A stretch of 64,000 nucleotides of DNA from Thermoanaerobaculia bacterium (GTDB lineage: Bacteria; Acidobacteriota; Thermoanaerobaculia; Multivoradales; UBA5704): positions 1,660 to 65,659 of the forward strand of contig DASPXX010000345.1 in NCBI GenBank assembly GCA_035637095.1. The letters are read 5' to 3'. Made by a program: the position numbers and the translations under genes. Position 1 is the stretch's first letter. Every line of letters starts with the position of its first letter. Shown one piece after another: positions 6,247 to 22,158 of the stretch. The notes below the pieces were generated by a model. That model was given only the letters and a program-made list of their open reading frames with translations. It did not search any database and had not been told where the DNA came from.

Positions 6247-6325
6247 CCCAGACAAAACGCGAAGACGAAGGACGCTTCCAGGCTCGCGGCCTATCCGTAC
6301 CATGGAGCTGTCGGGCGCCGACACC
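6247..6325 (+). promoter_or_regulatory. Conserved block upstream of precursor A1 (paralogous to 15317..15396); candidate promoter region
   Basis: CCCAGACAAAACGCGAAGACG...ATCCGTACCATGGAGCT...GCGCCGACACC is shared by both precursor loci. I could not assign confident -35/-10 elements. Confidence 0.35.
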
Positions 6326-6376
6326 GTTAAACCCGATGGCTGCTGAGGCGGTCATCAACCCTGCAAGGAGAAGAAA

Positions 6377-6520
6377 ATGGAAAACGTTCTCGCCCTCCAG
6401 AGCCTGACGTCCGTCGCCGACCCTCTCGACGACGAGATGTGCTGGTCCACCTGTAGCTCGAGCGGCTGCAGCTCCTCGTCGGTGTTCGTGCCGGACGCCG
6501 GCTGCGTCGACAACGGGTAA
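6377..6520 (+). CDS. Class III lanthipeptide precursor A1 (47 aa)
   Basis: Not in the ORF track. AAGGAG SD precedes the ATG. Product: MENVLALQSLTSVADPLDDEMCWSTCSSSGCSSSSVFVPDAGCVDNG. The leader has a VLALQ box. The core has S-x2-S-x3-C (S24..S27..C31), 10 Ser/Thr and 4 Cys. It lies 70 nt upstream of the LanKC gene. Confidence 0.8.
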   Translation: MENVLALQSLTSVADPLDDEMCWSTCSSSGCSSSSVFVPDAGCVDNG

Positions 6521-6530
6521 TCGCTTTGCC

Positions 6531-6560
6531 AGGAGAGCGGCGTGCGTTTGCCGCTCTCCT
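6531..6560 (+). terminator. Stem-loop after precursor A1 (putative leaky terminator or attenuator)
   Basis: AGGAGAGCGGC, loop gtgcgttt, GCCGCTCTCCT. The same stem with a different loop follows A2. The T-tract is weak (GCTCTTTCC). Confidence 0.4.
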
Positions 6561-6590
6561 GCTCTTTCCCCTGGAGGCAGCGAGCGCATC

Positions 6591-9293
6591 ATGTCCAGCA
6601 TCGAAAAGTTCACCTACACTCTGGCCCATCCCGAGTTCTATGAGCCTCTCGATTTCTTCGCCACCGACGAGGTCCGCTACCAGCGCCATCTCCGCGAGCT
6701 CCTTCCGAACGACTGGAAGGTGATGCGGGAGAGCGTCTGGCTGCACTGCATGCCTCCCGATGCGCGCCTTGTCTATCAAGGATGGAAGATCCACCTGTCC
6801 GCGGTCACTCCGAACGCGGTCGATCTCTTTCGCACCGTCATCCCCGTCCTGGTCCGCGAAAACGTCACATTCAAGACCTGCGCCGCGCCGACCATCCTGT
6901 CGATCATGGTCAGCAAGCGGTGGCACCGCGGCGGGGCCGGCAAGTGCATGACCGTCTATCCCTTCGATACCGATCACTTCATCGATCTGATCGAGCTCCT
7001 GCATCAGGCCACCCTCGGTCATGAAGGTCCCTACATTCTTTCGGACCGCAGATACAAGGACAGCAAGTGCGTCTTCTATCGCTATGGAGGGATCGCGCCG
7101 CGCAGCTCGCTGACCGCCAAGGGCGATCGCGTGCCCTACCTGCTTTCGCCGGAAGGCGAGCAGGTCCCCGACCGCCGCCAGGCCTGGTTCCATCTGCCGC
7201 CCTGGGCCAAGGACCCGTTCGCCAGCGAAACGGCTTCCACCGCGCCGGCGATGAATACTCTCAAAGGCGGGAGGTACCGGCCCGAGGCGGCCCTGCGCCA
7301 CACCAACTCGGGGGGCCTGTATCTGGCTCTCGACACGGCGACGGGTGAGAAGGTCGTTATCAAGGAGGCCCGCCCGCTGACCAATGTCGACCCGACCGGC
7401 GGCACCGAGGCGAAGGACCTCCTGGCCCGGGAATACCGGCTGCTCACGCTGCTCGACGGGGCCGGGGTCGGTCCGCGCGCCATCGATTTCTTCCAGGAAT
7501 GGGAGCACACCTTCTTCGTGCAGGAGTACCTGGACGGCATGACGCTCCGCCAGCACTCGATCCTGCACAACGTGGCCCGGTTCTCCCAGCCGTCGCCGAC
7601 CCATTTCGCGGAGTTCTACAGCGAGCTCCGGCGCGTCTTCGAGCAGCTGGCGGTCATCCTGCAGACCCTCCACCGGCACCAGGTCGTCTTCCGCGATCTG
7701 TCGCCGACGAACGTGATCATCTTGAAGACCGGAGAGGTCCGCCTGGTGGACTTCGAGGCGGCGTCGCAGCTCGGCGTCGATCCGATGAGCAACCTTTTTA
7801 CCCCCGGCTTCGCTTCGTCGGATCACTTCTCGAGCGACCTGCCGCAGTTCGAGAACGACTATTTCTCACTGGGCGCGCTGATGCTCGCCTACCTCATGCC
7901 GATGCACGCCGCCCTCGGTCTCGATACGTTGATGCATCACCGGTTCATCCGCTCGATCGGCGACGACTACGGTTTCCCCGAGAGTCTGATCGATCTGATG
8001 AACGGGCTGATGAGCCGCGATCCCGCCCTGCGTCCGGCGCCGGACGCGGTGCTGGAGATCCTCGCCCATCCCTCTCCCGTGCGCGAGCCCCAGATGGGCA
8101 GGAACGCCGGCCTGCCGGACGACAAGCTGCGCGAGGCGGTATCCCGGATCGTGCACTACACGCTCCGCCAGGCGACCCCGGAACGCAAGGACCGGCTCTT
8201 CCCTTGTGATCCCAAATCGTTCGCGACCAATCCCCTGAGCCTCGCCTACGGCGCCTGCGGCACGGTCTATGCCCTGCACCGGCTCACCGGCGAGGTCCCG
8301 GCCGAGCTGACCGAGTGGATCCTCCGCAAAGAGATCACGACGGACTCCTATGCGCCGGGCCTCTACAGCGGCATGGCGGGTATCGCCTGGGTGCTCCTGG
8401 AGCTGGGCTTCGTCGATCAGGCGCGGGAGATCCTCGACAAGGGGCGCAACCATCCGGTCCCGCAGATCCATGACCTGTTCTACGGCCTGGCCGGTTGGGG
8501 CATGACGCAGCTCAAGTTCTATCACGAGCTCGGCGAGTTGGAATATCTGGACGAGGCCGTCCGCACCGGCCGCGAGCTGCTGAAGACGCGAATCCCCGGA
8601 GACGACGGCTGCCACTGGGCTGCGTCGGAAGAGCTCTTCTTCGGATTGGCCCACGGCGCGAGCGGCGTGAGCCTCTTCCTGCTCTACCTGTACCTCGCGA
8701 CCGGCAACGAGGAGTTTCTTCGCGTCGGGCAGGAGGCTCTGGATTTCGATCTCGCGCAGGCCGTGGACCTGGGAGAAGGATTGCTCTGGCCGAGCCGCAC
8801 CGGCCCGCTGCGCACCGTGGTGCCCTACTGGAGGTATGGCAGCGCGGGCGTCGGCGCCGTCCTGCTCCGCTACAGCCGCGTGGCGGACAACGAACGGTAC
8901 CGGCAGCTCCTGCAGGGGATCAAGCGCGCCGCGATCCGCAAGTACGCCATCTTCCCCCACCGCGGATTCGGCCTGGCCGGCCTGGGGGAATTCCTCGTCG
9001 ACATGGCGCAGCACGGGATCGACGCGGAGGAGTGCAGGGAGGCCGCCCGCAGCGTGGCTTCAGGGGTGATGCTCTTCCACCTGGACAAGGAGAGCGAAGG
9101 CATCGCCTTCCCCGGCGCCGATCTCTGGAAGATCAGTTGCGACTACACCGCCGGAAGCGCGGGGATCGCTCTGTTTTTCGACCGGCTGCTGAGCCGCCGG
9201 CCGGCCGATTTTCTGCTGGACGAGCTGTTCCCGGCCGCGGCTGCTCCGCGTCTCGAGCCATCCGCGGTCGAGGCGGCCGGAACGGCTCGCTGA
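6591..9293 (+). CDS. Class III lanthipeptide synthetase (LanKC: lyase-kinase-cyclase)
   Basis: N-terminus: QGWKIHLS, FKTC, GKCMTVYP (pSer/pThr-lyase-like). Middle: VVIKEA, FRDLSPTN, VDFE (protein kinase). C-terminus: GxxG helix-pair repeats (GMAGIAWVL, GLAGWGM, GLAHGASGVS, GSAGVGAVL, GLAGLGEF, GSAGIALFF). WRYG replaces WCxG and SCDYTAG replaces CHG, so the Zn ligands appear absent. Confidence 0.85.
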   Translation: MSSIEKFTYTLAHPEFYEPLDFFATDEVRYQRHLRELLPNDWKVMRESVWLHCMPPDARLVYQGWKIHLSAVTPNAVDLFRTVIPVLVRENVTFKTCAAPTILSIMVSKRWHRGGAGKCMTVYPFDTDHFIDLIELLHQATLGHEGPYILSDRRYKDSKCVFYRYGGIAPRSSLTAKGDRVPYLLSPEGEQVPDRRQAWFHLPPWAKDPFASETASTAPAMNTLKGGRYRPEAALRHTNSGGLYLALDTATGEKVVIKEARPLTNVDPTGGTEAKDLLAREYRLLTLLDGAGVGPRAIDFFQEWEHTFFVQEYLDGMTLRQHSILHNVARFSQPSPTHFAEFYSELRRVFEQLAVILQTLHRHQVVFRDLSPTNVIILKTGEVRLVDFEAASQLGVDPMSNLFTPGFASSDHFSSDLPQFENDYFSLGALMLAYLMPMHAALGLDTLMHHRFIRSIGDDYGFPESLIDLMNGLMSRDPALRPAPDAVLEILAHPSPVREPQMGRNAGLPDDKLREAVSRIVHYTLRQATPERKDRLFPCDPKSFATNPLSLAYGACGTVYALHRLTGEVPAELTEWILRKEITTDSYAPGLYSGMAGIAWVLLELGFVDQAREILDKGRNHPVPQIHDLFYGLAGWGMTQLKFYHELGELEYLDEAVRTGRELLKTRIPGDDGCHWAASEELFFGLAHGASGVSLFLLYLYLATGNEEFLRVGQEALDFDLAQAVDLGEGLLWPSRTGPLRTVVPYWRYGSAGVGAVLLRYSRVADNERYRQLLQGIKRAAIRKYAIFPHRGFGLAGLGEFLVDMAQHGIDAEECREAARSVASGVMLFHLDKESEGIAFPGADLWKISCDYTAGSAGIALFFDRLLSRRPADFLLDELFPAAAAPRLEPSAVEAAGTAR

Positions 9294-9320
9294 AACGACC
9301 AGAACCCAACGAGGGGCATC

Positions 9321-10334
9321 ATGAGCAAACCACTGATCAGTTATTCCTTGACGCGCCATCCCAGCCAGTCCCGCATCGCGTCGGCCTACATCGACGCTCT
9401 GCGCGAGCGCTATGAGATGGTCAGCAGCCAGGACGACGCCGACGTCGTCATCGTCCACCATGCGCCGCGCAACTACGAGACGGTCTATGCCCTGCATCCC
9501 GCGCTCGAGGACAGCTATGTGATCTCCTGCTGCGTAACGCATGCGGACGTCCTGCCGCCCCACTGGCAGCGCAACCTGGCGCGCGTCCAGGAAATCTGGA
9601 CCTGCTCGCGGTATTGCCATCAGATCCTGTCGCGGTACCACCCGAAGGTGACTCACATCCCCTATGTGGCCGAGCGCGACTTCACCTGCTCCGCCACCGC
9701 CCTCGAAGGCATCCGCCGGATGATCGATCACGACGAGGACAACGTCTATTTCCTGAACATCGCCCTCAGCAATCATCCCCGGAAGAACGTCCAGACGCTG
9801 GTCGAGAGCTTCAAGAAGGTGGCCGCCGCCATGCCGAAGGCGCGGCTGGTGCTCAAGGGGATGCCGCAGGACGTGCCGACCTGGTCGCCCCACCCGCAGG
9901 TCCTGTTCCTCCCGTTCCAGATGCCGTTCGAATACATCAGCGCTCTCTACCGGCTGAGCGGCGTGTACGTCAGCACGCACCGCTCGGAGTCCTGGGGCCT
10001 CACGATGTCGGACGCCATCCTCTGCGGCAAGCCCGTCATCGCGACCGGCTATTCCGGAAATCTGGACTACATGAACGAGGACAATGCGTTCCTGCTCTCC
10101 TACCGCGAGAGCGCCATTCCGGGGCAGGCCCTCGGGGTGGAGCTCGACGGGGCGACCTGGGCCGATCCGGATCCGGCCAGCCTCGAAGAGAGATTCCTGT
10201 ACCTGTACGAGACGCATGCCAGCGAAGCGACCCGGCAGAAGGCCGAGCGGGCGCGCCAGGAGATCCTTCGCTTCAACCGGCCGTATGTCACGAACCTGAT
10301 CCATCAGAGCATCGAATCGGCCCTCGCCGGCTAG
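9321..10334 (+). CDS. Glycosyltransferase (GT-B fold, GT1/GT4-like)
   Basis: C-terminal motif STHRSESWGLTMSDAILCGKPVIATGYSGNLDYMNEDNAFLL (E-x7-E type). Starts 27 nt after the LanKC gene. Confidence 0.75.
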   Translation: MSKPLISYSLTRHPSQSRIASAYIDALRERYEMVSSQDDADVVIVHHAPRNYETVYALHPALEDSYVISCCVTHADVLPPHWQRNLARVQEIWTCSRYCHQILSRYHPKVTHIPYVAERDFTCSATALEGIRRMIDHDEDNVYFLNIALSNHPRKNVQTLVESFKKVAAAMPKARLVLKGMPQDVPTWSPHPQVLFLPFQMPFEYISALYRLSGVYVSTHRSESWGLTMSDAILCGKPVIATGYSGNLDYMNEDNAFLLSYRESAIPGQALGVELDGATWADPDPASLEERFLYLYETHASEATRQKAERARQEILRFNRPYVTNLIHQSIESALAG

Positions 10335-10345
10335 GGGAAACGCTC

Positions 10346-11278
10346 ATGAGCACAGATCCTCGCTTCGTGGAGCGCACGGAACAGCTCGACCGCGACGGCT
10401 TCTTCGTTTGGCCCGGGCTGCTGCCGGATTCGCTGGTCGACCGGCACCTCGCGGATTACGAGGCGCTGAATGCCGCGCTGGCTGCCGAGCCGCGGGAGCA
10501 GGCGGAGATCAAGCAGGCGCGCTACGACTTCCATCGCGACAATCCGGCGACGCAGGAGCTGTACTTCAATCCGGACCTGCTGGCCTTCCTGAGCTTCTAT
10601 TTCGGGGAGGAGCCGGTGATGCGGCAGCCGGAGACGGGCCTCCACCACCGGAAGACTCCCGACCACACGGATTCGCTCGATTTCAAGGTCAGCCCGCACC
10701 GGCACGAGCTGCGGATGTGGTGCGCCCTGGAGGACATCCATCCCGACTCGGGTCCGGTCTATTTCGTCCCCGGCAGCCACCGCTCGATTGCCGGCCGGCT
10801 GGAGCGCGACGTCCTGACCGAGCATCCGGAGCTCGGCGAGCTGCTGCGCGCGCAGATGCATCCGACCACGGCCCAGGAGTTCTACGTGGCGACCCAGCCG
10901 CTGTGGAACTATGTGAAGCAGAGGAAGATCCCGACCGCGATCCAGGAGAACGGCGTCGAGCGGGTGCCGCTTCTGCTCGAGAAAGGCGACGTCGTCATCT
11001 TCAGCTCGGATTGCGTGCACGGCACCTGCCGCTGCGCCAATCCCGCGCTGACGAGGAAATACTGCGTCGCCTACTGGTCGGCCGCCGGCGCGGAGTGGTT
11101 CCAGTCGCGTTCCTACTGGGGCCCTCTCCACGACTACCGGGACGCGGAAAACGCCATCTCGGCGCCGGTCGAGAGAACCCCGCTGGGGCTCCGGATGTCG
11201 TTCCAGGAGCTCCACGCGGCCTACATGGCCTCCTTCGAGAAAGCGGTGGTCCAGCCGGCGGTGGCCCGGTCGGCGTGA
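10346..11278 (+). CDS. PhyH-family Fe(II)/2-oxoglutarate dioxygenase
   Basis: ORF 9614..11278 trimmed to ATG 10346 (MSTDPRFVERTEQLDRDGFFVWPGLL). The facial triad is HTD...SSDCVHGT. Starts 11 nt after the glycosyltransferase. Confidence 0.8.
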   Translation: MSTDPRFVERTEQLDRDGFFVWPGLLPDSLVDRHLADYEALNAALAAEPREQAEIKQARYDFHRDNPATQELYFNPDLLAFLSFYFGEEPVMRQPETGLHHRKTPDHTDSLDFKVSPHRHELRMWCALEDIHPDSGPVYFVPGSHRSIAGRLERDVLTEHPELGELLRAQMHPTTAQEFYVATQPLWNYVKQRKIPTAIQENGVERVPLLLEKGDVVIFSSDCVHGTCRCANPALTRKYCVAYWSAAGAEWFQSRSYWGPLHDYRDAENAISAPVERTPLGLRMSFQELHAAYMASFEKAVVQPAVARSA

Positions 11279-11347: not shown

Positions 11348-13801
11348 ATGTTTGGACTCCGCCAGCTCTCCCTGTTCACGCGCGAGGTGCGCTTCGCCGC
11401 GCGCGCGCTGCGCAAGAGCCCGGTGTTCACGCTCACGGCGGTGCTGACCCTGGCCATCTGCATCGGCGCGAACACGGCGCTGTTCAGCGTCGTCGATGCG
11501 GTGCTGCTGCGCCCGCTCCCTTACCCGCAGCCGGAGCGGCTGGCCGAGGTGATCACCCGGTTCGAGGACAAGGGTCCCGAGCAAGACGAGGATTCGCACT
11601 CCGGACAGACCTGGTTCCTCATCCGGGATCACGCGGAAGGGTACGACGCCGCCGTCTCCTCGGGTCTCGCCTCGGGAGTCAACTTTGCGGCCGCCGGCCG
11701 GGTGGAGTACGTGCAGCAGGAACGGGTGGGAGCCGGCTTCTTCCGCGTCCTCGGCATTCCGCCCCTCCTCGGACGGGAGATCTCTCCCGAGGAAGACACG
11801 CCGGGAGGCCCGGCGGTGGCGGTGCTCAGCCACCGCCTGTGGCAGCGGGTCTTCCATGCCGATCCTGCCGTCCTCGGCCGCGTCGTCCTGCTGCGCGGCG
11901 TTCCCCATGTCGTCGTCGGGGTCATGCCGCCCGGCCTGGTGACCACGGGATCGGCCGACCTGTGGACGCCCCTCCAGCCCTCGACGACCGGCGAGGGCGA
12001 GGATGAGAACTACCGCGTCATCCTCCGCCTCCACGAGGGGACGGCCTGGCCGCAGGCCGTGGCCCGGATCGCCACGCTCGGCCAGACGGCGCTCACGGAG
12101 AGGCGTGCGGAGGACCCCTCCGTCCGCCTCACGCTCGTACCGCTCCAGCGGGGCCTCACCGAGACGGTCCGCAAGCCGCTCCTCGTGCTCTGGGCCGCGG
12201 CGGGCATGCTCCTGTTGATCGGGTGCGTGAACATCGCGAGCCTGCTCCTCGCGCGGGCGGTCGAGCGCAGCCGTGAGACCGCGACCCGGCTCGCGCTCGG
12301 GGCGGGGCGGACGACCATCCTCCAGCAGCTCCTGGCCGAGAGCCTGCTCCTCGGCGTGAGCGGCGGGCTCGGCGGCCTGCTCCTCGGTTTCTGGGCCTTG
12401 CGCGCGGTCAAACCGCTGGCGCATGGCAGCCTCGAGCTGTGGCAGGAGGTCACGCTCGACACCCGGGTGCTCGCCTGGTCGATCGGCGCCTCGCTCCTCG
12501 CCAGCTGTATCTTCGGCCTCCTTCCCGCGCTCCAGATCCGCCGCGTCGACATCCGTTCGACGCTCGGCGAAGGGGGCCGCGGAAGCACAGGGAGCGGGCA
12601 CCGGTGGGCGAGGCGCCTGCTGGTGATCTCCGAGGTCGCGCTGAGCGTCGTCCTCCTGGTCTGCGCCGGCCTCTTCCTCCGCACCTTCTCGGCGCTCCGC
12701 GCGCTCCAGCCCGGCTTCGATGCGAACAACGTGACGACCGCCCAGCTGTCCTTGCAGGATGCGCGCTATACCACGAGCCGGCAGATGAACCGGCTGTTCA
12801 CCGACACCCTGTCGCGCATCCGCGAGCTGCCCGGGACCGAGGGAGCCGCGGTCGGGCTGGGATTGCCCTATGAGCGCCAGCTCAGAATGGGTTTCCAGCT
12901 CATGGACGGCGCCGAGGCCGCGGGACCCGGCGGCAACACCACCGCGACCTACGTGACGCCGGATTACTTCGCGGTGCTGCGCATCCCGCTCGTGCGCGGC
13001 CGCCTGCTGCGCGACAGCGACGGACCGGAGGCGGGCAAGGTGGCCGTGGTCAACCAGGCCTTCGTCCGCCGCTATCTGCCACAGGGAGAGCCGATCGGCC
13101 GGCACATCCAGCTGGCCGGCGAGACGCGCGAGATCGTCGGCGTCGTCGGCGACGTCCTCCAGCAATCGGGAGGGACGAACGGTCCGATCGCTCCTCTGCC
13201 GGCGACCCTCTTCCCGGCGGCGCAGGCGAGCGACGACATGATCCAGCTCGTGCACACCTGGTTCTCACCGAGCTGGATCGTGAGGACCGGAGAACGCCCC
13301 GACCAGGCGGCGCTCGGCATCCAGCGCGCGATCGAAGCCGTCGATCCCCGGCTGCCCATCGCGAGCTTCCGCGGCATGGAAGACGTCGAGAGGCGCGCCA
13401 CGGCCCGGCAGCGCTTCCAGGCCATCCTCCTGGCGACGCTCGCCGTCCCCGCCGCGCTCCTCGCCGCGATCGGCATCTACGGTCTGATCGCCCACGCGGT
13501 CGCCGAGCGACGGCGCGAAGTGGGCATCCGGCTGGCGCTGGGCGCCACCCGCTGGCAGACGATCCGGGCCGTCGCGCAACCGGGCATCCTGCTCGCTCTT
13601 GTGGGCACCGCGCTCGGCTGCCTTCTGGCGCGAGTCGCCGTCAAGTCGCTGCAACATCTCATCTGGGGAGTCCAGGCCACCGACCCCGGCACCTTCGCCG
13701 CGGTCACGCTGGGCCTCCTCCTCGTGGCCACCGCCGCCAGCATCCTGCCCACGTTGCGCCTGAACCGGCTCGACCCCTCCCAGACCCTGCGCGATTCGTG
13801 A
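11348..13801 (+). CDS. ADOP-type duplicated MacB/FtsX-like permease (acidobacterial duplicated orphan permease family)
   Basis: 817 aa. The N-terminus ...[48 protein letters not shown] is typical of the family. There are two FtsX-like halves and no adjacent ATPase gene. Confidence 0.8.
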
Positions 13802-13930: not shown

Positions 13931-13996
13931 CCGGAGGCGCTCCAGTTCCCGGGGCTCACGCCCCGGGCTAAGCGCCGACGCCCCCTCCGGGGGCTC
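13931..13996. repeat. GC-rich palindromic interspersed element (inverted copy of 14199..14275)
   Basis: Contains hairpins CCCGGGGCtcacGCCCCGGG and CCCCCtCCGGGGG. Its reverse complement aligns with AGCCCCCGAAGGGGGCG...TAGCCCGGGG...CCCCGGGT at 14199..14275. Confidence 0.5.
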
Positions 13997-14002
13997 TCAC
14001 CC

Positions 14003-14504
14003 AGCTCACCCACCGTACAGATCAAGGCAGTTCCGGCCGGGCGGCACGGGCGCGTGGACGGAGATCAGCCGGTTCTTTTACTCGTCGCAATCCCACCGTA
14101 CGGATCAGGGCAGTTCCGACGATAACTACGTCGCGATCGCGGGGAGGCTAGGCAAGTCGCAATCCCACCGTACAGATCAGGGAAGTTGTCGCATCCGAAA
14201 AGCCCCCGAAGGGGGCGACAGAATGTAGCCCGGGGTCAGAGCGACGAAGGAGCAGCGACCCCGGGTAAGGAGCACCCACTCTTTTCCAAGCCCCAGAGGG
14301 GCGGCAGCAGCCTCTCGTCGCAACCGACCACCGTACAGATCAGGGCAGTTCCGGCGCACTGGATCATGTCGGAGCAGATGGCCAACTGAATCACGTCGCA
14401 ATCCCACCGTACAGATCAGGGAAGTTCCAAGGATGAAAGCAGCCGATGGCTGCAACGTCACGATTGAGTCGCAATCCCACCGTACAGATCAGGGAAGTTC
14501 CAAG
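14003..14504 (-). CRISPR. CRISPR array 1 (6 repeats of 37 nt; no cas genes in the window)
   Basis: Repeat as written on the + strand: GTCGCAATCCCACCGTACAGATCAGGGAAGTTCCAAG. Copies: about 14003-14036 (degenerate, partial), 14084-14120, 14156-14187 (truncated after GGAAGTT), 14317-14354 (degenerate), 14395-14431 and 14468-14504 (both exact). Spacers are 35-47 nt and lower in GC. Degeneration at the low-coordinate end and the conserved flank on the right imply minus-strand transcription. In that sense the repeat ends in ATTGCGAC. Confidence 0.85.
14199..14275. repeat. GC-rich palindromic element inserted inside CRISPR array 1
   Basis: Follows the truncated repeat 14156-14187. Contains hairpins GCCCCCgaaGGGGGC and CCCGGGGtcagagcgacgaaggagcagcgaCCCCGGG. 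Confidence 0.5.
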
Positions 14505-14722
14505 GGCGGCCGTTCCAACCCTCTGAGTCCACAGGCACTTAAGTTGGGTCTTTTTATGACCCGGCTCGAAGGTCGTCTCTGCTTCTCGTTTTCCACAGCC
14601 TTTCAGCTCACCTCCTCTCTGGTAACCTCTTGAAGGCCGGGCACTTCCGGTCCTTTTATGATCTCCCCGTCAAAATGGCACTTTGAGGCTGGCATGCTTT
14701 TTGTCTGGCACACCGCTTGCTT
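14505..14722 (-). promoter_or_regulatory. CRISPR leader 1 (conserved with 35694..35910)
   Basis: About 220 nt with roughly 85-90% identity to the flank of array 2. AT-richer patches are present (TTTTTATGA, TTTTATGAT, CAAAATGG). Confidence 0.6.
14706..14721 (+). promoter_or_regulatory. Sigma-54-type -24/-12 promoter motif pointing away from the array
   Basis: TGGCACaccgcTTGCT against the consensus TGGCAC-N5-TTGCW. GG and GC are exactly 10 nt apart. The paralogous site at 35894 keeps both elements while the N5 spacer differs. Confidence 0.45.
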
Positions 14723-14822
14723 CCACTCGGCGACCATGACAGGGCTGCTGCCCAAATAATCCTACTCTCTTTGCCGCGGCTTGGGGAGATCTTCCTCCCC
14801 AGTTCCTCTTCATAGGCCGGAT

Positions 14823-14976
14823 CCCGGCGAGATGCCCGGCTCGTCGCGTTGTTGCTTCAGTTTTCAAAGAGCGCAGGGGATCGGGCGCAGCCTGGCCCCT
14901 CTGACTTCTCTAGACACAGGTTGCCGGCGGATTGTTGGACGCGGCCCAATCTTCCCTCGGCAGGGCGGCCACCGCC
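14823..14976. other. 153-nt conserved non-coding block, copy 1 (paralogue at 36257..36410)
   Basis: About 92% identity between copies. Substitutions do not favour synonymous sites in any frame I checked. A small stem AGGGG...CCCCT is kept with a changed loop. Confidence 0.5.
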
Positions 14977-15007
14977 GGCGTCTCGCCAGGGCGAACACCG
15001 GTCCTCA

Positions 15008-15322
15008 CGGGGCGAAGGCCGGCTGTCTTGGGGCGGAGGCCGGTACTCGCGGGGCGAAGGCGAGGACTGACGGGGCGAACATCGGGACTGACGGGGCGGA
15101 GGCCGGGACTGACGGGGCGAAGCTCATCCCTGCAGGGGGAAAGGCTCCCCCAGGAGGGATGACCTCGTACCCAACAGGGGCGGCCGTCGCCCCTCTTGGG
15201 GGAGCCGTCGCCCCAGCAGGGATGAGCTCGTACCCAGCAGGGGGGACCTCGTACCCGTCAGAGGGGAGCTCGTACCCAGTAGGGGGGAGCTTCCCCCCAA
15301 CACGGGCGGCCGTCATCCCAGA
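15008..15322. repeat. 21-bp phased minisatellite, copy 1 (about 15 units)
   Basis: G-runs start at 15009+21n for n=0..13 with no indel. The first 6 units resemble CGGGGCGRRGGCNGGGACTGA. The later units are GGGG-N-CCCC mini-palindromes (for example GGGGCGgccgtCGCCCC and GGGGGGAgctTCCCCCC). Confidence 0.85.
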
Positions 15323-15396
15323 CAAAACGCGAAGACGCGCGACGCTTCCTTGCTTGCGGCCCATCCGTACCATGGAGCTTGTCGTGCGCCGACACC
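15317..15396 (+). promoter_or_regulatory. Conserved block upstream of precursor A2 (paralogous to 6247..6325)
   Basis: Same sequence block as upstream of A1. It directly abuts the last minisatellite unit. Confidence 0.35.
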
Positions 15397-15424
15397 TTCA
15401 CAACACAAACGTAAGGAGAAGACA

Positions 15425-15568
15425 ATGGAAAACGTTCTCGCCCTCCAGAGCCTGACGTCGATCGCCGATCCCCTCGACGACGAGATGTGCTGGTCGACCT
15501 GCAGCTCCAGCGACTGCAGCTCCTCGTCGGTGTTCGTTCCGGACGCCGGCTGCATCGACAACGGCTAA
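15425..15568 (+). CDS. Class III lanthipeptide precursor A2 (47 aa)
   Basis: This is the C-terminal part of ORF 15350..15568, and an AAGGAG SD precedes ATG 15425. Product: MENVLALQSLTSIADPLDDEMCWSTCSSSDCSSSSVFVPDAGCIDNG. It differs from A1 by V13I, G30D and V44I. Confidence 0.8.
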   Translation: MENVLALQSLTSIADPLDDEMCWSTCSSSDCSSSSVFVPDAGCIDNG

Positions 15569-15578
15569 ATCGCTTGCC

Positions 15579-15617
15579 AGGAGAGCGGCTGGCTGGCTGC
15601 CGCTCTCCTGCTTTTTC
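15579..15617 (+). terminator. Stem-loop plus T-tract after precursor A2 (attenuator or leaky terminator)
   Basis: AGGAGAGCGGC, loop tggctggct, GCCGCTCTCCT, then GCTTTTTCC. Confidence 0.5.
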
Positions 15618-15639: not shown

Positions 15640-17301
15640 ATGGATCGCACAGAACAATTCACGGACTCCCTGGCCGGCGCGTTGCTGTTCGACGGCGAGA
15701 TTCGCGACAGAGAGCTGCAGAAATCCATGCGCAAGGAGGTGCGCGTCCAAGGCTTCGACGTCTTTCTCGCCGGGTTTGCCAAGGCGCTCCTGGCCCACAG
15801 CCGTCTCGGGCCCGTGCACGTGACCCGGGAAGCGGCCACCTCGTTCCTGCGCGCTGCGCCGCCCTGGCTTCAGGAGCATGCGGGGCGCCTCTCCATGGTG
15901 TCCGCGAACGATCCGTCGGAGCTCGCGTCGATCGCGCGGCTGGTCCTCCTGTCGGTCGGTCCGGAGATGATCCAGCTCGCCTGGCTCCGCTCGCGGCTGC
16001 ACCGGCCCGACTGGCCGATCACCGCGATTCTTCATTCCCTGTCTCCCGCGCCCCGGATCCGCTATTTCTTCACCAGCGCGCTCCTCCCTATGCTCGGCCG
16101 GCACGATGCGTTCGTCTGCCCCAGCCGCGCGGCGAAGAAGGCGCTCGAAAACCTGTTCTTCTCGGTTCCCGAGGAGATCCGCTCCTGCTCCACCATTCCG
16201 TTCGAAATGCCGGTCATCCCGTTCGGGATCGATTTCCACGAGCATGCATCGATCGGCAAGGAGGAGGCCCGCCGCACCCACGGCATCCCCTCGTCGGCGG
16301 TGGTCTTCCTGTGCTTCGGCCGGCTGGCGATGGACAAATGCGATCTGCTCCCCTTGATGATCGCGTTTTCCCAGCTTCCCAAGGACTCGGGCGCCGTCCT
16401 TCTGATGGCCGGGGATGATACGCAGCTCAGGATGGGCTCTCCACTCCTGGGGCTCGCCCGGGAGCTCGGCTGCGGCGACCGCGTGCAGATCCTGACCGAC
16501 GTGAGTCGGACGGCGAAGCTGGAGATCTTCGCCGCGGCCGACGTCTTCGTCTCTCCCACGGAGAACACCCAGGAATCCTTCAGCATGACTCTCGCCGAGG
16601 CCATGGCGAGCGGCCTGCCCGTCGTGACCTCGGATTGGGGCGCGCACGGCGAGCTCGTGGAGCACGGCGAGACGGGATTTCTGATCCCCACCTATCTGCC
16701 GCCGGTGGCGGAGCCCTGGCACATGCTCACGCTCTATTCGGGGATTCCGCAGGAAAACCTGATCTCGATGAGCACGGCCGTGGACGTGGACCACCTCCTG
16801 CACTCCCTGCAGCTTCTCCTGGCGAGCCCGGATCTCCGGGAGAGGATGGGCCGGGAGGCGAAGCGGCGCGCGGCGGAGACGCTCGACTGGCCGGTCGTGG
16901 TCGGTCAATACGATGCCCTGTGGCTCGAGCTTCTCGAGCGTGCCGGCGCCGTGCGGGCGAAGTCCGGACCTTTCGCCTGCTCGTCGTTTCAGGAGGTCTT
17001 TGCCGGGTACCCGACGCGGTCGCTCCAGGCGGAGGACAGCGTCGAGGTCAACCAGGCTCTCGGCGGCGTGGCCCGCCGGCTCCCGGGCGTCTTGGGCACG
17101 AGCCCGCACTTCGACGCCGACCTCTTCCACCAGGTCATCGCGACTCTCGAATCCGAGGGGCCGACGCGGATCGACCGGCTCGTCGAGCTGGCCGCGGCGC
17201 CCCGGCCGCGCAGCGCCACCGAGGTCGGCCGGCACATCGGCCGCCTGATCAAGTACGGAGTCCTCCGGGTTTCCGCGGGACCCCAGGAGATCGGCCGATG
17301 A
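15640..17301 (+). CDS. GT4-family glycosyltransferase with long N-terminal extension
   Basis: ORF 15487..17301 trimmed to ATG 15640 (GAGGAGGA SD). Motif: ENTQESFSMTLAEAMASGLPVVTSDWGAHGELVEHGETGFLIP. Confidence 0.75.
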   Translation: MDRTEQFTDSLAGALLFDGEIRDRELQKSMRKEVRVQGFDVFLAGFAKALLAHSRLGPVHVTREAATSFLRAAPPWLQEHAGRLSMVSANDPSELASIARLVLLSVGPEMIQLAWLRSRLHRPDWPITAILHSLSPAPRIRYFFTSALLPMLGRHDAFVCPSRAAKKALENLFFSVPEEIRSCSTIPFEMPVIPFGIDFHEHASIGKEEARRTHGIPSSAVVFLCFGRLAMDKCDLLPLMIAFSQLPKDSGAVLLMAGDDTQLRMGSPLLGLARELGCGDRVQILTDVSRTAKLEIFAAADVFVSPTENTQESFSMTLAEAMASGLPVVTSDWGAHGELVEHGETGFLIPTYLPPVAEPWHMLTLYSGIPQENLISMSTAVDVDHLLHSLQLLLASPDLRERMGREAKRRAAETLDWPVVVGQYDALWLELLERAGAVRAKSGPFACSSFQEVFAGYPTRSLQAEDSVEVNQALGGVARRLPGVLGTSPHFDADLFHQVIATLESEGPTRIDRLVELAAAPRPRSATEVGRHIGRLIKYGVLRVSAGPQEIGR

Positions 17302-18809
17302 TCCGAAAGGTTTTTCTCTGGTGCGCCTTCACGGCGCTTCTCCTCCTCCTGGCCGGCGCCGCCGCGGCCCAGGACTTGGCGTCGTTCGAGGCGCGGACGA
17401 CGCTCCACAAGCTGGCCAACGGCTGGACGTTCCTGATCGTCGAGCGGCCCACGGCGCCGGTCTTCTCCTTCGTCACGCTGGCCGACGCCGGCTCGTCGCA
17501 GGACGTCCCCGGGATCACCGGCCTGGCGCACATGTTCGAGCACATGGCGTTCAAGGGAACGACCCTCATCGGCACCAAGGACCCCGTGGGCGAGGCCAAG
17601 GCGCTCGCGGACCTCGAAGCCGCGTACCAGGCCTATCAGGCGGAGCGGCTGGCGCCGCGGCCGGACGCCGCCCGGCTGGAGGGGCTCCTTGCGGAATTCA
17701 AAACCCGGCAGGCGGAGGCGGCCGGGTACGTCGTGCCCAACGAGCTCGACTCCATCCTCACGCGCGAAGGAGCGGCGGCGATCAACGCCGTGACGGACGC
17801 GGACCGGACAATGTTTTTCTATTCGCTCCCGTCGAACAAGGTGGAGCTCTTCGCGTTCCTCGAATCCGAGCGGTTCTATCATCCGGTCTTCCGCGAGTTC
17901 TACGAGGAGCGGAAGGTGGTCCAGGAGGAGCGCCGGATGCGCTATGAGAGCCAGCCGCTCGGCCGTCTCGCCGAGCAGCTGCGGACCACGGCGTTCCAGC
18001 ACCATCCGTACGGGCAGCCGGGGATCGGCACCATGAGCGATCTCGATTCGATGACGATGACGGATGCGGAAAACTTCTTCGAGACCTATTACGCGCCATC
18101 GAACCTCTACACCGTGATCGTCGGGAACGTAGAGGCCGTCACCCTGATTCCGCTCATCGACAAGTATTTCGGCCGCATCCCCGCGCGGCCCGCGCCGCCG
18201 CCTCTGCGTGCCGTAGAGCCGCCGCAGATCGCCGAGAGGACGGTCGTTCTGGAGGATCCGGGGCAGCCGTCCTACCTGGAGGCCTACCACAGGCCGGCCC
18301 AGACGCATCCGGACCAGCCGGTCTACGACGCGATCGAGGACGTCCTCACCAATGGCCGCACGTCGCGCCTCTACCGGTCGCTGGTGCATGACAGGAAGCT
18401 CGCGGCGAACGTGCAGGCCCTTTCCGGGTTTCCCGGGAAAAAGTATCCCAACCTGTGGGGAGTGCTCGTCGTCCCGGCCGCGGGAGTGACCCATCAGCAG
18501 ATCCAGACTGCCCTGCGGGAGGAGCTCGACCGGTTGAAAACGGAGGATGTGACGGACGGCGAGCTGGCCCGGTTCAAGGCCCGCTCGAAAGAGAATCTCC
18601 TCCGCTCGTTGCGCAGCAACCAGGGCCTCGCCATCGAGCTCGCCGAGCACCAGTGCCTCGATGGCGACTGGCGCGAGCTGTTCCGCTCGATCGATCGCCT
18701 GGACCGGGTGACCAAGGCCGACATCCGGCGGGTTGCGGAGGCGACGTTCCAGGCCCCGAACCGCACGGTGGCGATGACCGTCCGGAAGGATGACAAGGAG
18801 AACCCATGA
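17298..18809 (+). CDS. M16 (pitrilysin-family) zinc peptidase, active subunit, secreted
   Basis: ATG 17298 overlaps the glycosyltransferase stop (ATGA). Signal peptide MIRKVFLWCAFTALLLLLAGAAAAQD. The HxxEH motif is HMFEH. Confidence 0.8.
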   Translation: MIRKVFLWCAFTALLLLLAGAAAAQDLASFEARTTLHKLANGWTFLIVERPTAPVFSFVTLADAGSSQDVPGITGLAHMFEHMAFKGTTLIGTKDPVGEAKALADLEAAYQAYQAERLAPRPDAARLEGLLAEFKTRQAEAAGYVVPNELDSILTREGAAAINAVTDADRTMFFYSLPSNKVELFAFLESERFYHPVFREFYEERKVVQEERRMRYESQPLGRLAEQLRTTAFQHHPYGQPGIGTMSDLDSMTMTDAENFFETYYAPSNLYTVIVGNVEAVTLIPLIDKYFGRIPARPAPPPLRAVEPPQIAERTVVLEDPGQPSYLEAYHRPAQTHPDQPVYDAIEDVLTNGRTSRLYRSLVHDRKLAANVQALSGFPGKKYPNLWGVLVVPAAGVTHQQIQTALREELDRLKTEDVTDGELARFKARSKENLLRSLRSNQGLAIELAEHQCLDGDWRELFRSIDRLDRVTKADIRRVAEATFQAPNRTVAMTVRKDDKENP

Positions 18810-20254
18810 AGAAGCTCAGGCTCGCGGCCCTCCTGCTCGCCGCCGGCTGGTCGCTCTCCGCGGCGGCGCAGGTCAGCCGCGTCGAAGACCTGCACTATCC
18901 GCCCTTGCCGCCGTTCGCGATCCCGCAACCCGAGCGCCTGGTGCTCGGGAACGGGCTGGTCGTCATGCTGCTGGAAGACCATGAGCTGCCGCTCGTCGAC
19001 GCCACGGTCCTCATCCGCACCGGCTCGCGCTTCGATCCCGCGGACCAGGCGGGATTGGCCGTTCTCGGCGCGCGAGCGATGCGCGCCGGAGGCACCGGGA
19101 GCCTGCCCGGCGACGCCTTGGACGGTTATCTCGAAAGCCGCGCGGCCGAGATCGAGATCACCGCCGAAGAGGACCTGACCCGTGCGACCGTCTCCTCGCT
19201 GGCCGCGGATTTCCCCCAGGTGTTCCGCGTCTTCGCCGACCTCCTGCGCCGGCCCGCGTTCGACGCGCCCGAGGTGGAGGTGGCGCGGACCCAGGCGATC
19301 ACCGACGTCTCCCGCCGCAACGACAACCCGGGCAAGGTCGCGCTGCGCGAGCTCCGCAGGATCGTCTACGGCGCCGACTCTCCCTATGGACGGGCGGAGA
19401 CGCCCGCGACCTTGGGCGCCATCCGGCGTGAAAATCTGATCGGCTGGCATGCCGCGGCGTTCCATCCGGACCGGATGGTCCTCGGACTGGTGGGCGACTT
19501 CCAACGCAAGGAGGCCGTGGCGCTGATCCGCCAGGTTTTCGGCGACTGGCCGCGCGGCGCCGCATGGCATCCCCAACCGGCGTCCTACCGGCAGCAGCCG
19601 GCTCCCGGCGTCTATTACGTCGAGAAGCCCGGAATCGCGCAGTCCTCGATCCAGATGGGACATCTCGGCGTCCTGGTGAGCGATCCCGACTTCTATGCCC
19701 TCGAGGTGTTGAATCAGGTTCTCTCCGGCTCGTTCTCGTCGCGGCTGTTCGCCGACGTGCGGACCCGCAAGAGCCTCGGCTATGCCGTGTGGGGCGCGGT
19801 CGACAGCGAATGGGACCATCCGGGGCTCGCCTCCCTCTACCTCTCCACCAAGGCGGAGACGACCGGCGCCGGCGTCGAGGCCCTGCTGGAGGAGGCCCGC
19901 AGCCTCACGGAGCTCCCGCCGACCGAGGAGGAGGTGAGCCGGGCCCGGCAGGGCCTCCTCAACTCCTTCGTCTTCCGTTTCGACTCCCCGCGCGAGGTGC
20001 TCGCCCGGCAGCTCCTCCTGGAGTATCACGGCTATCCTCTCGACTGGCTCTCCCGCTACCGGGCGGGGATCGAGGCAGTGACGTCCGACCAGGTCCGGCG
20101 GGCGGCCCGCCACTGGCGGCCGGACGACTTCACCATCCTGGTCGTCGGTCCGAACCAGGGACGGGACAAGCCGCTCACCGATTTCGGCACGGTGACCGTC
20201 CTGGCGGGAGCGTCCGCTCCGGCGCGCCCCGACGTCGATGCGGGGCGCCCATGA
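18806..20254 (+). CDS. M16-family peptidase, non-catalytic partner subunit, secreted
   Basis: 4-nt overlap with the upstream M16 gene. Signal peptide MKKLRLAALLLAAGWSLSAAAQ. There is no HxxEH motif. Confidence 0.75.
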   Translation: MKKLRLAALLLAAGWSLSAAAQVSRVEDLHYPPLPPFAIPQPERLVLGNGLVVMLLEDHELPLVDATVLIRTGSRFDPADQAGLAVLGARAMRAGGTGSLPGDALDGYLESRAAEIEITAEEDLTRATVSSLAADFPQVFRVFADLLRRPAFDAPEVEVARTQAITDVSRRNDNPGKVALRELRRIVYGADSPYGRAETPATLGAIRRENLIGWHAAAFHPDRMVLGLVGDFQRKEAVALIRQVFGDWPRGAAWHPQPASYRQQPAPGVYYVEKPGIAQSSIQMGHLGVLVSDPDFYALEVLNQVLSGSFSSRLFADVRTRKSLGYAVWGAVDSEWDHPGLASLYLSTKAETTGAGVEALLEEARSLTELPPTEEEVSRARQGLLNSFVFRFDSPREVLARQLLLEYHGYPLDWLSRYRAGIEAVTSDQVRRAARHWRPDDFTILVVGPNQGRDKPLTDFGTVTVLAGASAPARPDVDAGRP

Positions 20255-22158
20255 GCATTCCGATCGAAGCCAACTCCGGAGCCGCGCGCGCCGGCCTCTA
20301 CGGCGGCGTCGTCTCCTCGAAGCAGCGGCACCTCCCCCGCGATTCCGCCGGAAAGCTCAAGGTGCCGGGGAAGCTCCCGGTGATCCTCACCGACGCCTGG
20401 GAGATCGTGCGGGCGCGCAAGGGGCGCCTCGCCGTCGGCCTCCTGCTGATCCTCGTCAACCGCCTCTGCGGTCTGGTGCTCCCCGGAATGACCAAGGTTC
20501 TCCTCGACGAGGTGGTCGGACGGCACAACCGGGCCCTGCTGGTGCAGCTCGTCCTCGTCGGCGGCGGCGCGACGCTCCTCCAGGCGCTCAGCTCCTTTTC
20601 TCTCGCGCAGGTCCTCGGCAAGGCGGCGCACCGGTCGATCACCGAGATGCGCCGCACCCTGCAGCGGCACGTCGGCCGTCTGCCGGTGGGCTATTTCGAT
20701 CGCACCAAATCGGGCGTCCTCCTCGCGCGCGTGATGAACGATGCGGACGGGCTGCGCAACCTGGTGGGGACGGGCGTGGTGGAGCTGGTGGGCGGCGTCC
20801 TGACCGCGGTGCTGGCGCTCGCCATCCTCGTCTCCTTGAATGCCCGGCTGGCGGTGATCGTCATCGCCGTGCTGGCGCTCTTCGCGGCCGTCATGCAGCG
20901 GTCGTTCAAAGTGCTCAGGCCGCTCTTCCGCGAGCGTTCCCGGATCAATGCCGAGATCTCGGGCCGGCTCTCCGAGTCGTTCTCCGGCGTGCGGGTCGTC
21001 AAGGTCTACCGCGCCGAGCGGCGTGAGGCGCTCGTCTTCGCCAAGGGAGCCCACCGCCTGTTCCGCAACGTCGTCGCGACAGTCACCAGGATCTCGCTGA
21101 TCGGCGGGACGTCGACGCTGCTGCTCGGCCTCCTGGGCGTCGCGATCATGGCGATCGGGGCGAACGAGGTGCTGGCCGGCCGGATGACGCTGGGCTCGTT
21201 CTTCTCGTTCACCCTGTATCTGGGCCTCCTGGTGAACCCGGTGACGCAGATCGTCAACATCGGAGGCCAGATCAGCGAGGCGTTCGCCGGCCTGGAGCGC
21301 ATCCGCGAGATCCGCAGCGAGACGATCGAGAGCGCCGGCGAGGTCCTCCACGCGCCGCTCGACGCGGTCACCGGGCGGGTCGAGCTCCGCGACGTCTGGT
21401 TCGAATACCAGGAGCAGACGCCGGTCTTGCGCGGCATCTCGTTCACCGCCGAGCCGGGCATGTCGGTGGCGCTGGTCGGCTCCTCCGGCTCCGGCAAGAG
21501 CACGCTGATCGGATTGGTGGCCGCCTTCCACCGTGCGACCGCCGGCCAGGTCCTGGTGGATGGCAGGGACCTCGCGACGCTGCGTTTGAACGACTACCGC
21601 GCCCACCTCGGAGTCGTCTTCCAGGAGAGCTTCCTGTTCGATGGAACCGTGTTCGAAAACATTGCCTATGCGCGGCCGGATGCTTCCCGCGACGAGATCG
21701 TGGAGGCCGCCCGCATCGCCGGCTGTGACGCCTTCGTGACGAAGCTGCCGGACGGCTACGCCACGATCGTCGGCGAGCGGGGCGTCAAGCTCTCCGGCGG
21801 CGAGCGGCAGCGGGTCGCGATCGCGCGGGCGATCCTCGCGGACCCGCGGATCCTCATCCTCGACGAGGCGACCTCTTCGCTCGACAGCGAGAGCGAAGCC
21901 CTGATCCAGCGAGGCCTGGCCGAATTGATGCGCGGACGGACCACCTTCGTCATCGCCCACCGGCTGTCGACCATCCGCAACGCCGACCTGATCCTGGTGC
22001 TGGAACAGGGACAGATCGTCGAGCGCGGCCGTCACGGGGAGCTGCTCGCCCTGGGCGGCCGCTATCACGCGCTCTACACCCGGCAGTACAACCTCGAGTC
22101 GAATCTCTTCCTGAACCCCGGCGAGAAAATCGAGCGGATGTCGGTGATCGGGGCCTGA
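20251..22158 (+). CDS. ABC exporter, fused TMD-NBD (MsbA/type I exporter-like); no C39 peptidase domain
   Basis: ATG 20251 overlaps the upstream stop (ATGA). Motifs: Walker A GSSGSGKST, signature LSGGERQR, Walker B ILILDEATS, H-loop IAHRL. Confidence 0.85.
   Translation: MSIPIEANSGAARAGLYGGVVSSKQRHLPRDSAGKLKVPGKLPVILTDAWEIVRARKGRLAVGLLLILVNRLCGLVLPGMTKVLLDEVVGRHNRALLVQLVLVGGGATLLQALSSFSLAQVLGKAAHRSITEMRRTLQRHVGRLPVGYFDRTKSGVLLARVMNDADGLRNLVGTGVVELVGGVLTAVLALAILVSLNARLAVIVIAVLALFAAVMQRSFKVLRPLFRERSRINAEISGRLSESFSGVRVVKVYRAERREALVFAKGAHRLFRNVVATVTRISLIGGTSTLLLGLLGVAIMAIGANEVLAGRMTLGSFFSFTLYLGLLVNPVTQIVNIGGQISEAFAGLERIREIRSETIESAGEVLHAPLDAVTGRVELRDVWFEYQEQTPVLRGISFTAEPGMSVALVGSSGSGKSTLIGLVAAFHRATAGQVLVDGRDLATLRLNDYRAHLGVVFQESFLFDGTVFENIAYARPDASRDEIVEAARIAGCDAFVTKLPDGYATIVGERGVKLSGGERQRVAIARAILADPRILILDEATSSLDSESEALIQRGLAELMRGRTTFVIAHRLSTIRNADLILVLEQGQIVERGRHGELLALGGRYHALYTRQYNLESNLFLNPGEKIERMSVIGA

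Follow-up and report, generated by a model that had tools for sequence, protein, structure and literature searches.

A 64,000-nt stretch of DNA from a Thermoanaerobaculia bacterium (assembly GCA_035637095.1, contig DASPXX010000345.1, positions 1,660 to 65,659), referred to here as the window, carries between 6247 and 22158 a group of genes that is quite probably one cluster for a class III lanthipeptide. The cluster had previously been described from its letters and open reading frames (ORFs) alone (the sequence-only reading). All cluster genes lie on the + strand and fall into two units, the first running from the precursor gene lanA1 to a permease of the acidobacterial duplicated orphan permease (ADOP) family, the second from the precursor gene lanA2 to an ABC exporter, with 1.6 kb of non-coding DNA separating the permease gene from lanA2. 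The features are as follows; related loci are designated by L numbers.

6247-6376, + strand: upstream region of lanA1, aligned with 15327-15424 and L021; probable promoter/5' untranslated region
6377-6520, + strand: lanA1, class III precursor, 47 aa, with leader VLALQ, core S24-x2-S27-x3-C31 and four Cys
6530-6561, + strand: GC-rich hairpin, then CUCUUUCC; probable attenuator between precursor and enzyme genes
6591-9293, + strand: lanKC, predicted class III lanthionine synthetase, 900 aa, with lyase, kinase and zinc-free cyclase
9321-10334, + strand: GT-short, family-4 glycosyltransferase (GT), 337 aa, Pfam Glycos_transf_1
10346-11278, + strand: PhyH-type Fe(II)/2-oxoglutarate oxygenase, Pfam PhyH E = 1e-17, with an HTD (HxD) motif
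11348-13801, + strand: ADOP-family duplicated MacB/FtsX-type permease, TIGR03434
14001-14505, - strand: CRISPR-like array of six 37-nt repeats, called on repeat geometry
14706-14721, + strand: perfect sigma-54 -24/-12 consensus TGGCACACCGCTTGCT, a predicted site that points towards lanA2
14989-15312, no strand assigned: non-coding tandem repeats of 21-nt period, GC flat across codon positions
15327-15424, + strand: conserved upstream element of lanA2, aligned with the lanA1 copy and L021
15425-15568, + strand: lanA2, second precursor copy (V13I, G30D, V44I), a duplicate of lanA1
15578-15610, + strand: hairpin, then CUUUUUCC; duplicate of the putative lanA1 attenuator
15640-17301, + strand: GT-long, family-4 retaining GT-B glycosyltransferase, 553 aa, with a C-terminal winged-helix-like domain of ~110 aa
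17298-18809, + strand: M16B peptidase, catalytic subunit (M16_1), with HMFEH and an N-terminal signal-like sequence
18806-20254, + strand: M16B peptidase, non-catalytic subunit (M16_2), without HxxEH, with an N-terminal signal-like sequence
20251-22158, + strand: ABC exporter with fused membrane and ATPase domains, without a C39 peptidase domain

The sequence-only reading had placed a 47-aa precursor ORF 70 nt before the 900-aa ORF and a near-identical second copy further downstream, and both are present. lanA1 is preceded by the ribosome-binding site AAGGAGAAG and encodes MENVLALQSLTSVADPLDDEMCWSTCSSSGCSSSSVFVPDAGCVDNG; the lanA2 peptide is identical to it at 44 of 47 residues. At the DNA level the two genes differ at 11 nt, and since 8 of these changes are synonymous and 3 non-synonymous, both copies appear to be under purifying selection. 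The VLALQ leader box (residues 4-8) and the S24-x2-S27-x3-C31 core that had been noticed in the peptide are both invariant in an alignment of five precursors, namely the two window copies and those of L002, L005 and Xanthomonas, so that the family combines the LxLQ-type leader motif and the S-x2-S-x(3-5)-C core motif that mark class III precursors. Residue by residue, this alignment is invariant at L5, L7, Q8, DPLDDE 15-20, C22, W23, S24, T25, C26, S27, S28, C31, S33-S35, V36, F37, V38, P39 and the C-terminal Cys, and the position changed by G30D in lanA2 is occupied by G or D. Precursors outside the five-sequence alignment relax V38/P39 (L020 and L022 have VFIA or VFIS), and L011 has a variant core (CWSTLSFAHC...) in which C26 is lost but S24-x2-S27-x3-C31 is kept, which points to S24, S27 and C31 as the putative ring-forming triad. 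The precursor family is conserved from Thermoanaerobaculia to Xanthomonas. A phmmer search with lanA1 against 1.84 billion representative proteins gave six matches at E <= 0.001, five of them proteins of 39-70 aa, and gene annotations apparently seldom include the precursors of this family. A third lanA copy was not found in the window by tblastn.

Each precursor gene is part of a duplicated module, which extends from ~130 nt upstream of lanA1 (about 6247) through the hairpin and almost to the start codon of the next gene. The two modules have in common a conserved upstream element of ~80 nt (6247-6325 in the lanA1 copy), and both lanA genes are trailed by a GC-rich hairpin and a T-run, with folding energies of -35.4 kcal/mol (z = -3.4) for the lanA1 hairpin and about -34 kcal/mol for that of lanA2. 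L005 and L002 have a hairpin of unrelated sequence at the same position after lanA. Hairpins placed in this way are consistent with attenuation that tunes how much precursor transcript is made relative to enzyme transcript. Upstream of lanA1, no sigma-54 promoter was found at three or fewer mismatches, and a sigma-70 scan gave nothing beyond shuffle expectation. A weak GG-N10-GC candidate in the 80-nt element was not adopted; a 1-nt deletion spoils its spacing in the lanA1 copy. Just upstream of the lanA1 module, at 5643-6163, an antitoxin-like small ORF followed by a degraded PIN-domain (VapC-like) gene was read by eye, and Pfam reports nothing in this stretch. A PIN/FitA-like pair also lies upstream of the cluster in L022.

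The 900-aa protein had been described as a lyase, a kinase and a LanC-like domain in that order, and the Pfam models bear this out with RamC_N (lyase) at residues 33-218, Pkinase at 240-488 and LANC_like at 550-870; the motifs quoted for it are all there too, among them the catalytic motifs QGWKIHLS, VVIKEA, FRDLSPTN and DFE (as VDFE). The protein scores 761.3 bits against the NCBIfam class III equivalog model NF038151 (cutoff 575) and 590.3 bits against the class IV model NF038150, which is below the cutoff of 650. Its top twelve sequence matches in the PDB are full-length lanthipeptide-synthetase chains of about 860-900 aa (E 1e-74 to 1e-44), several of them named class III LanKC or SalKC by their depositors. 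For the zinc ligands, 60 cyclase domains of the family were combined in a profile and aligned by hhalign with the human LANCL1 reference sequence, which is identical to PDB 3E6U; with a single sequence as template the probability reached only 46%, but the GxxG repeats anchor the alignment. LANCL1 C276 falls on R748 (PYWRYGSAG) and C322/H323 fall on G792/F793 (HRGFGLAGLG). None of the 60 homologues has Cys or Cys-His at the ligand columns; the Cys column is occupied by R, Q, E or K, and the Cys-His columns by residues of G/F type. Hence the conclusion that the zinc ligands are lost holds, as does the WRYG site given for the first of them, but the counterpart of the CHG motif is G792-F793 and not SCDYTAG, which as SCDYTAGSAG aligns to the last GxxG repeat (FEGMAG in LANCL1).

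A class IV, LanL-type synthetase with a zinc-dependent cyclase would share the lyase and kinase domains, which are common to classes III and IV, and the class IV model still gives 590 bits. Such an enzyme might also account for H688 (LAHGASG; window 8652-8654), a residue that 51 of the 60 homologues share and that aligns with the catalytic His of zinc-dependent LanC. Nevertheless, that assignment is extremely improbable and was rejected, as the class IV score stays under its cutoff while the class III score exceeds its own, the ligand columns lack Cys/Cys/His throughout the 60 homologues, and the close PDB relatives are all class III. By these sequence criteria the 900-aa protein belongs to class III and is a LanKC, as the sequence-only reading had proposed. 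According to a 2020 review, class III cyclases lack the LanC catalytic His (PMC8341899), and the two best-matching class III PDB chains have Asp (IDG) where this LanKC has H688. Cys850-Asp851 (window 9138-9143) in the last cyclase repeat is near invariant (58/60 and 60/60, respectively). We consider H688 and C850/D851 candidate catalytic residues of the zinc-free cyclase.

The coordinates and peptide sequences given earlier are correct. Unit 2 has the composition stated for it (a family-4 GT, two M16 peptidases and an ABC exporter), and three ATGA overlaps of 4 nt join GT-long, M16_1, M16_2 and the exporter gene. In unit 1 the genes that had been listed are present, but GT-short and the PhyH oxygenase had been overlooked; with a second family-4 GT and an oxygenase, the product probably carries more tailoring than had been implied. 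The same set recurs in related loci: lanA in one to three copies, lanKC, GT-long, GT-short, PhyH, M16 as a pair or a fusion, and ADOP. GT-short is conserved in 11 related loci, and PhyH is likewise conserved. A single-operon version occurs in L005 (LanKC 67% identical), L008 (an Acidobacteriaceae metagenome-assembled genome, MAG), L020 and L022, and a rearranged version in Xanthomonas nasturtii (L003/L004), Luteibacter (L006) and Luteimonas (L009). ADOP is present in L002, L003, L004, L006, L016 and L017 and within the operons of L005, L020 and L022; it was not detected in the fetched part of L008. This recurrence marks the ADOP permease, by gene context, as a conserved cluster member and no intruder, and the idea that a permease gene splits the cluster does not hold. 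Extra precursor copies are also seen elsewhere: L006 has two, L020 and L022 have three each, and L017 has one within its cluster.

That the two units are one biosynthetic system, as had been proposed, follows from the presence of the genes of both in a single operon in L005, L008, L020 and L022. If unit 2 instead served another pathway and lanA2 were a decaying relic of a local duplication, the 1.6 kb of non-coding DNA with its CRISPR-like array would mark the boundary between independent units, and the state of L002, which has unit 1 and no unit 2 within 10 kb, would be expected. We consider this very unlikely, since in the four single-operon loci the lanKC operon itself contains GT-long and M16 homologues, and lanA2 is intact, its three non-synonymous changes being conservative and G30D falling at a position where G and D both occur in the family. 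The arrangement in L021, which holds the closest GT-long relative found (85% identical), also argues for one system, with lanA2 and GT-long straight after the permease gene: ADOP, 232 nt, the 80-nt element, a lanA2-type gene, a hairpin and GT-long follow one another, with no array and no tandem repeats between ADOP and the lanA2-type gene. Since lanA2 directly follows ADOP there, the 1.6-kb stretch in the window is probably an insertion. A likely history is a single-operon ancestor in which an internal precursor module came to head the second half, followed by insertion of non-coding DNA in this genome. NCBI proteins identical to LanKC (100%) and GT-long come from a Thermoanaerobaculia bacterium MAG, and as Thermoanaerobaculia is a class of Acidobacteriota, the earlier assignment to an acidobacterial genome is correct.

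The intervening stretch contains six copies of a 37-nt repeat (14001-14505), perfect on the right and degenerate on the left, where none would be expected by chance. The repeats are spaced 72-83 nt start to start, except for one 163-nt interval, and are separated by unique sequence; the long interval corresponds to an abnormally long 125-nt 'spacer' with an inserted palindromic element. Regular direct repeats and unique spacers of similar length are the geometry of a CRISPR array. A second array with the same repeat, of five to six copies, occupies 35070-35700, a solo repeat follows at 36123, and the two arrays share a homologous flank of ~200 bp beside the perfect repeats; this leader-like flank is on the right, so the arrays would run on the - strand. 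Rfam places a near-threshold Acido-Lenti-1 match at 13948-13995 (+), just before the array (36.3 bits against a gathering threshold of 37), and a weaker copy at 14201-14234 (-) inside the 125-nt spacer, which resembles a small palindromic element inserted in the array. Across the whole window Rfam gives nothing at gathering thresholds, and at E <= 1 it gives nothing beyond spurious miRNA matches on the palindromic tandem repeats and the near-threshold Acido-Lenti-1 match.

The sequence-only reading had called a CRISPR array between the two units. A repeat array with CRISPR geometry is indeed there, but the window ORFs that were scanned include no cas gene, the repeat has no Rfam CRISPR-DR match, and neither the repeat nor three spacers match IMG/VR. 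These negatives leave room for another kind of interspersed repeat, such as regulatory sites tied to a sigma-54 promoter, and beyond each array there is indeed a sigma-54-type site, then a conserved segment of 160 nt and tandem repeats of 21-nt period. The canonical repeat spacing and the increasing degeneracy of the repeats with distance from the shared leader-like flank point the other way, and the reverse complement of the repeat ends in ATTGCGAC, which resembles ATTGAAAC, a common CRISPR repeat handle. Moreover, L005 has a sigma-54 promoter before lanA yet no copy of the repeat, which is absent from all 19 related loci compared. On balance a non-CRISPR repeat is unlikely, and the array is likely a CRISPR.

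The sigma-54 consensus at 14706 (+) lies at the far end of the flank shared by the arrays, and a one-mismatch version is found at 35894. In both places there follows a 160-nt segment (14816-14976 and 36250-36410, 92% identical) and then tandem repeats (14989-15312 and 36455-36812) that differ in sequence and have the same 21-nt period. The first of these cassette copies (14706-15312) precedes lanA2, and the second (35894-36812) precedes a 131-aa ORF (37165-37560) and then an esterase/S9-like gene (37593-38489). Two ORFs over the tandem repeats, 14781-15455 and 35882-36874, were ruled out as genes by GC content that is flat across codon positions. In L005 a perfect sigma-54 site is located 280 nt upstream of lanA, beside genes of an NtrC-type activator and of a GAF histidine kinase, a pair that the window has too (28475-31263), and L020 and L016 have 2-mismatch candidates upstream of lanA. 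Sigma-54 control of unit 2 is thus plausible from site predictions, although L021 and lanA1 have no site and the site in the window is 700 nt from lanA2. As a family trait sigma-54 dependence was discarded, the perfect site before lanA being found in L005 only.

Among the tailoring enzymes, GT-long gives a structural model with a mean predicted local distance difference test (pLDDT) score of 89.8 and resembles the retaining GT-B enzymes MshA, BshA and PimA. Lower structural matches are GtfA and SdgB (PDB titles: O-GlcNAc transferase; SdgB), which glycosylate Ser-rich proteins. Its C-terminal 114 aa are modelled as helices and short strands in a winged-helix-like arrangement (pLDDT 75.5). Foldseek found no significant match for this domain, nothing being better than E = 0.3; the weak, non-significant matches are winged-helix regulators and ThcOx, McbBCD, TbtB and MccB, which bear a recognition element of peptides that are made by the ribosome and modified after translation (RiPP recognition element, RRE). 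One GT-long homologue is labelled a GT plus ArsR-family regulator by the Joint Genome Institute. That the domain binds the leader in an RRE-like manner is only a hypothesis, prompted by the model. The PhyH oxygenase has only weak PDB relatives, and its HxD motif (HTD) predicts a hydroxylase rather than a halogenase.

The M16 pair has HMFEH at residue 78 of M16_1 and no HxxEH in M16_2, the composition of a heteromeric M16B peptidase with the motif in one subunit only, and the best PDB match of M16_1 is 3amj_C, the active subunit of a Sphingomonas M16B heterodimer (E = 5.5e-43). An ABC exporter without a C39 domain, together with an M16 pair that has signal-like N-termini and matches the structural template used for proven leader proteases, suggests that the modified precursor may be exported with its leader and then trimmed in the periplasm. 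The permease reaches 780.4 bits against the ADOP model TIGR03434 (cutoff 622.3) and contains two stretches each of MacB_PCD and FtsX (Pfam).

Beyond the exporter gene lies a further, possibly associated block, which also adjoins the cluster in L005 and is lacking beside the other family loci scanned.

22647-22844, - strand: Cys-containing peptide, 65 aa, homologous to a peptide next to the radical S-adenosylmethionine (rSAM) gene of L005
22902-24425, - strand: rSAM/SPASM peptide maturase, with the 65-aa peptide gene directly downstream
about 24419-28470, + strand: ABC-2 transporter, two permeases and an ATPase
28475-29872, - strand: NtrC-type sigma-54 activator
29860-31263, - strand: GAF histidine kinase

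The 65-aa peptide carries GG followed by NDESTNCVQYSCNLF, and its gene lies, in a different frame, partly over the 5' end of an ORF scanned as an AraC-type regulator. Given that the maturase is 750 nt from the ABC exporter gene and adjoins the cluster in L005 too, and that LanA has Cys residues beyond those explained by a single S-x2-S-x3-C, the maturase might also act on LanA, for instance by cross-linking C22, C26 or C43, and yield a hybrid lanthipeptide with radical-SAM thioethers. This is very unlikely, as the maturase has its own candidate substrate in the 65-aa peptide, with a homologue beside the L005 rSAM, and tblastn found an rSAM in L005 only among the family loci scanned; on the latter ground the rSAM was also dropped as a core family member. 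From its gene context, the maturase with the 65-aa peptide is probably a separate RiPP system next door. Elsewhere in the window, an MtrB/PioB-type outer-membrane porin (3211-5505) and multihaem c-type cytochromes (2059-3201, 2-1501 and 1473-1838) resemble an extracellular electron-transfer module (2-5505). A 602-aa protein with a C-terminal TIR domain (59576-61384, -) and a MoxR-like AAA ATPase beside a DUF2201 metallopeptidase/VWA protein (44552-47528) may be defence-related.

Taken together, we regard it as quite probable that the locus is one cluster for a tailored class III lanthipeptide, laid out as two co-oriented units that are each headed by a module of upstream element, precursor gene and hairpin. 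This reading draws on the gene identities and family membership, the missing zinc ligands, the conservation of gene set and precursor, and the purifying selection on both precursor copies. Several points weigh against it. Where the units begin and end is judged from the duplicated module and the spacing of the genes, and the sigma-54 and sigma-70 scans identified no promoter for lanA1. Two of the four precursor Cys are N-terminal to the Ser residues, which would be an unusual ring topology for class III. The signal-like hydrophobic N-termini of both M16 subunits were read by eye, with no dedicated predictor, the M16 genes are fused in some relatives (two-unit proteins of 905-946 aa), and M16 was not detected in the sequenced flanks of L003, L006 and L009. 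No ATPase partner of the ADOP permease is encoded nearby, and for the whole family the product structure, sugar identity and hydroxylation site are predictions from genes.

The scheme that follows is predictive in its chemical steps, compartments, regulation and permease role. LanKC would bind the VLALQ leader, phosphorylate Ser/Thr of the core and eliminate phosphate to give dehydroalanine or dehydrobutyrine, after which the zinc-free cyclase would close a labionin or lanthionine on S24/S27/C31; C22, C26 and C43 may form further rings or a disulfide. The PhyH-type oxygenase would hydroxylate the peptide and the two family-4 GTs add one or two sugars. Next, the ABC exporter would carry the modified precursor to the periplasm, where the secreted M16B heterodimer would cut off the leader, and the ADOP MacB-type permease could aid release or self-protection. 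The post-lanA hairpins would keep precursor transcripts in excess of enzyme transcripts. The product is probably a ring-containing class III lanthipeptide that is sugar-decorated and hydroxylated, and a search of the available literature, covering the core motif and class III systems with GTs or PhyH or from Acidobacteria, Xanthomonas and Luteibacter, found no characterized family member, so that the product stands as uncharacterized, as had been stated. The window LanKC already carries an automatic annotation in NCBI. antiSMASH and RODEO detect class III/IV clusters via Pfam HMMs (PMC7268733) and would probably flag this one.

More tentatively, and with somewhat less than even confidence in the claim as a whole, we suggest that the family represents an unseen kind of diderm class III lanthipeptide that is hydroxylated, glycosylated, exported with its leader and trimmed periplasmically, and that it has a distinct LanKC subclass and an RRE-guided GT. 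In such a pathway the sugar would be perhaps on the new hydroxyl or the Ser-rich stretch, the cyclase would keep the LanC catalytic His and add Cys-Asp, and the winged-helix domain fused to one GT would guide it via the leader. Gram-positive bacteria have so far been the main source of isolated class III lanthipeptides, and among lanthipeptides of any class few from Gram-negative bacteria have been characterized (papers including PMC7268733); only a few tailoring modifications have been described in class III (PMC8341899). The family is widespread and spans two Gram-negative phyla, with members in Acidobacteriota and in three gammaproteobacterial genera (Xanthomonas, Luteibacter and Luteimonas). 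The cluster is an expressible target for a new scaffold and a test case for lanthipeptide export and maturation in diderm bacteria, and its H688 and C850/D851 make it a naturally occurring variant with which to ask how class III cyclases that lack zinc activate Cys, a question still open. NCBI genomes of Luteibacter and Xanthomonas with the same gene set could open the chemistry, if the strains are obtainable. The split-operon layout and the duplicated precursor module are chiefly of evolutionary interest.

Among known systems, the LanKC structures 8sap/8sao/8sam (chains named 'Class III lanthionine synthetase LanKC' by the depositors, which we take to be ThurKC of subclass III-a) and 9wj0/9wop (presumably TherKC of subclass III-c) are homologous to the window LanKC over their full length (E = 1e-70 to 1e-74) and share its three domains and the missing zinc ligands. 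The window clade differs from them in having AHG (H688) for IDG and the conserved Cys850-Asp851. Subclass III-c is described as having a hydrophobic VLxLxxL-type leader motif, and S-x2-S-x3-C has been assigned to III-b and III-d, and STxSNxC to III-a and III-c (PMC13504147). The window precursor has S-x2-S-x3-C, the III-b/III-d type, and not STxSNxC. This exact motif is common to labyrinthopeptins and other S-x2-S-x3-C peptides, in some of which it gives labionin and in others lanthionine (Walker et al. 2020, PMC7268733); in contrast to labyrinthopeptins, the window core has one motif, two extra Cys N-terminal to it and an S32-S35 run after C31.

For tailoring, the nearest comparison is NAI-112, a glycosylated labionin-containing class III peptide of Actinoplanes, which like the system described here has a LanKC, an in-cluster GT and a zinc metallopeptidase for the leader. 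In NAI-112 a central Trp bears the sugar (PMC8341899), and W23 of the window precursor is invariant in the five-sequence alignment. However, the host here is an uncultured diderm acidobacterium, there are two family-4 GTs and not one GT, a PhyH oxygenase and an ADOP permease are added, and the predicted leader peptidase is a secreted M16B pair and not AplP (AlpP in PMC8341899). M16B pairs of this kind are known from the paenithopeptins and bacinapeptins of Firmicutes (PttP1/PttP2 and Bcn-gP1/gP2), which are likewise heteromeric with HxxEH in one subunit. PttP1/PttP2 are proven class III leader proteases and were modelled on PDB 3amj (PMC8960859), which M16_1 of the window matches too, whereas here both subunits have signal-like N-termini and their genes are translationally coupled to that of the ABC exporter. 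On gene content and predicted function, the window system therefore appears to be set apart from those compared by its diderm host, its two GTs and PhyH oxygenase, the secreted M16B pair, the ADOP permease and the His and Cys-Asp features of its cyclase.

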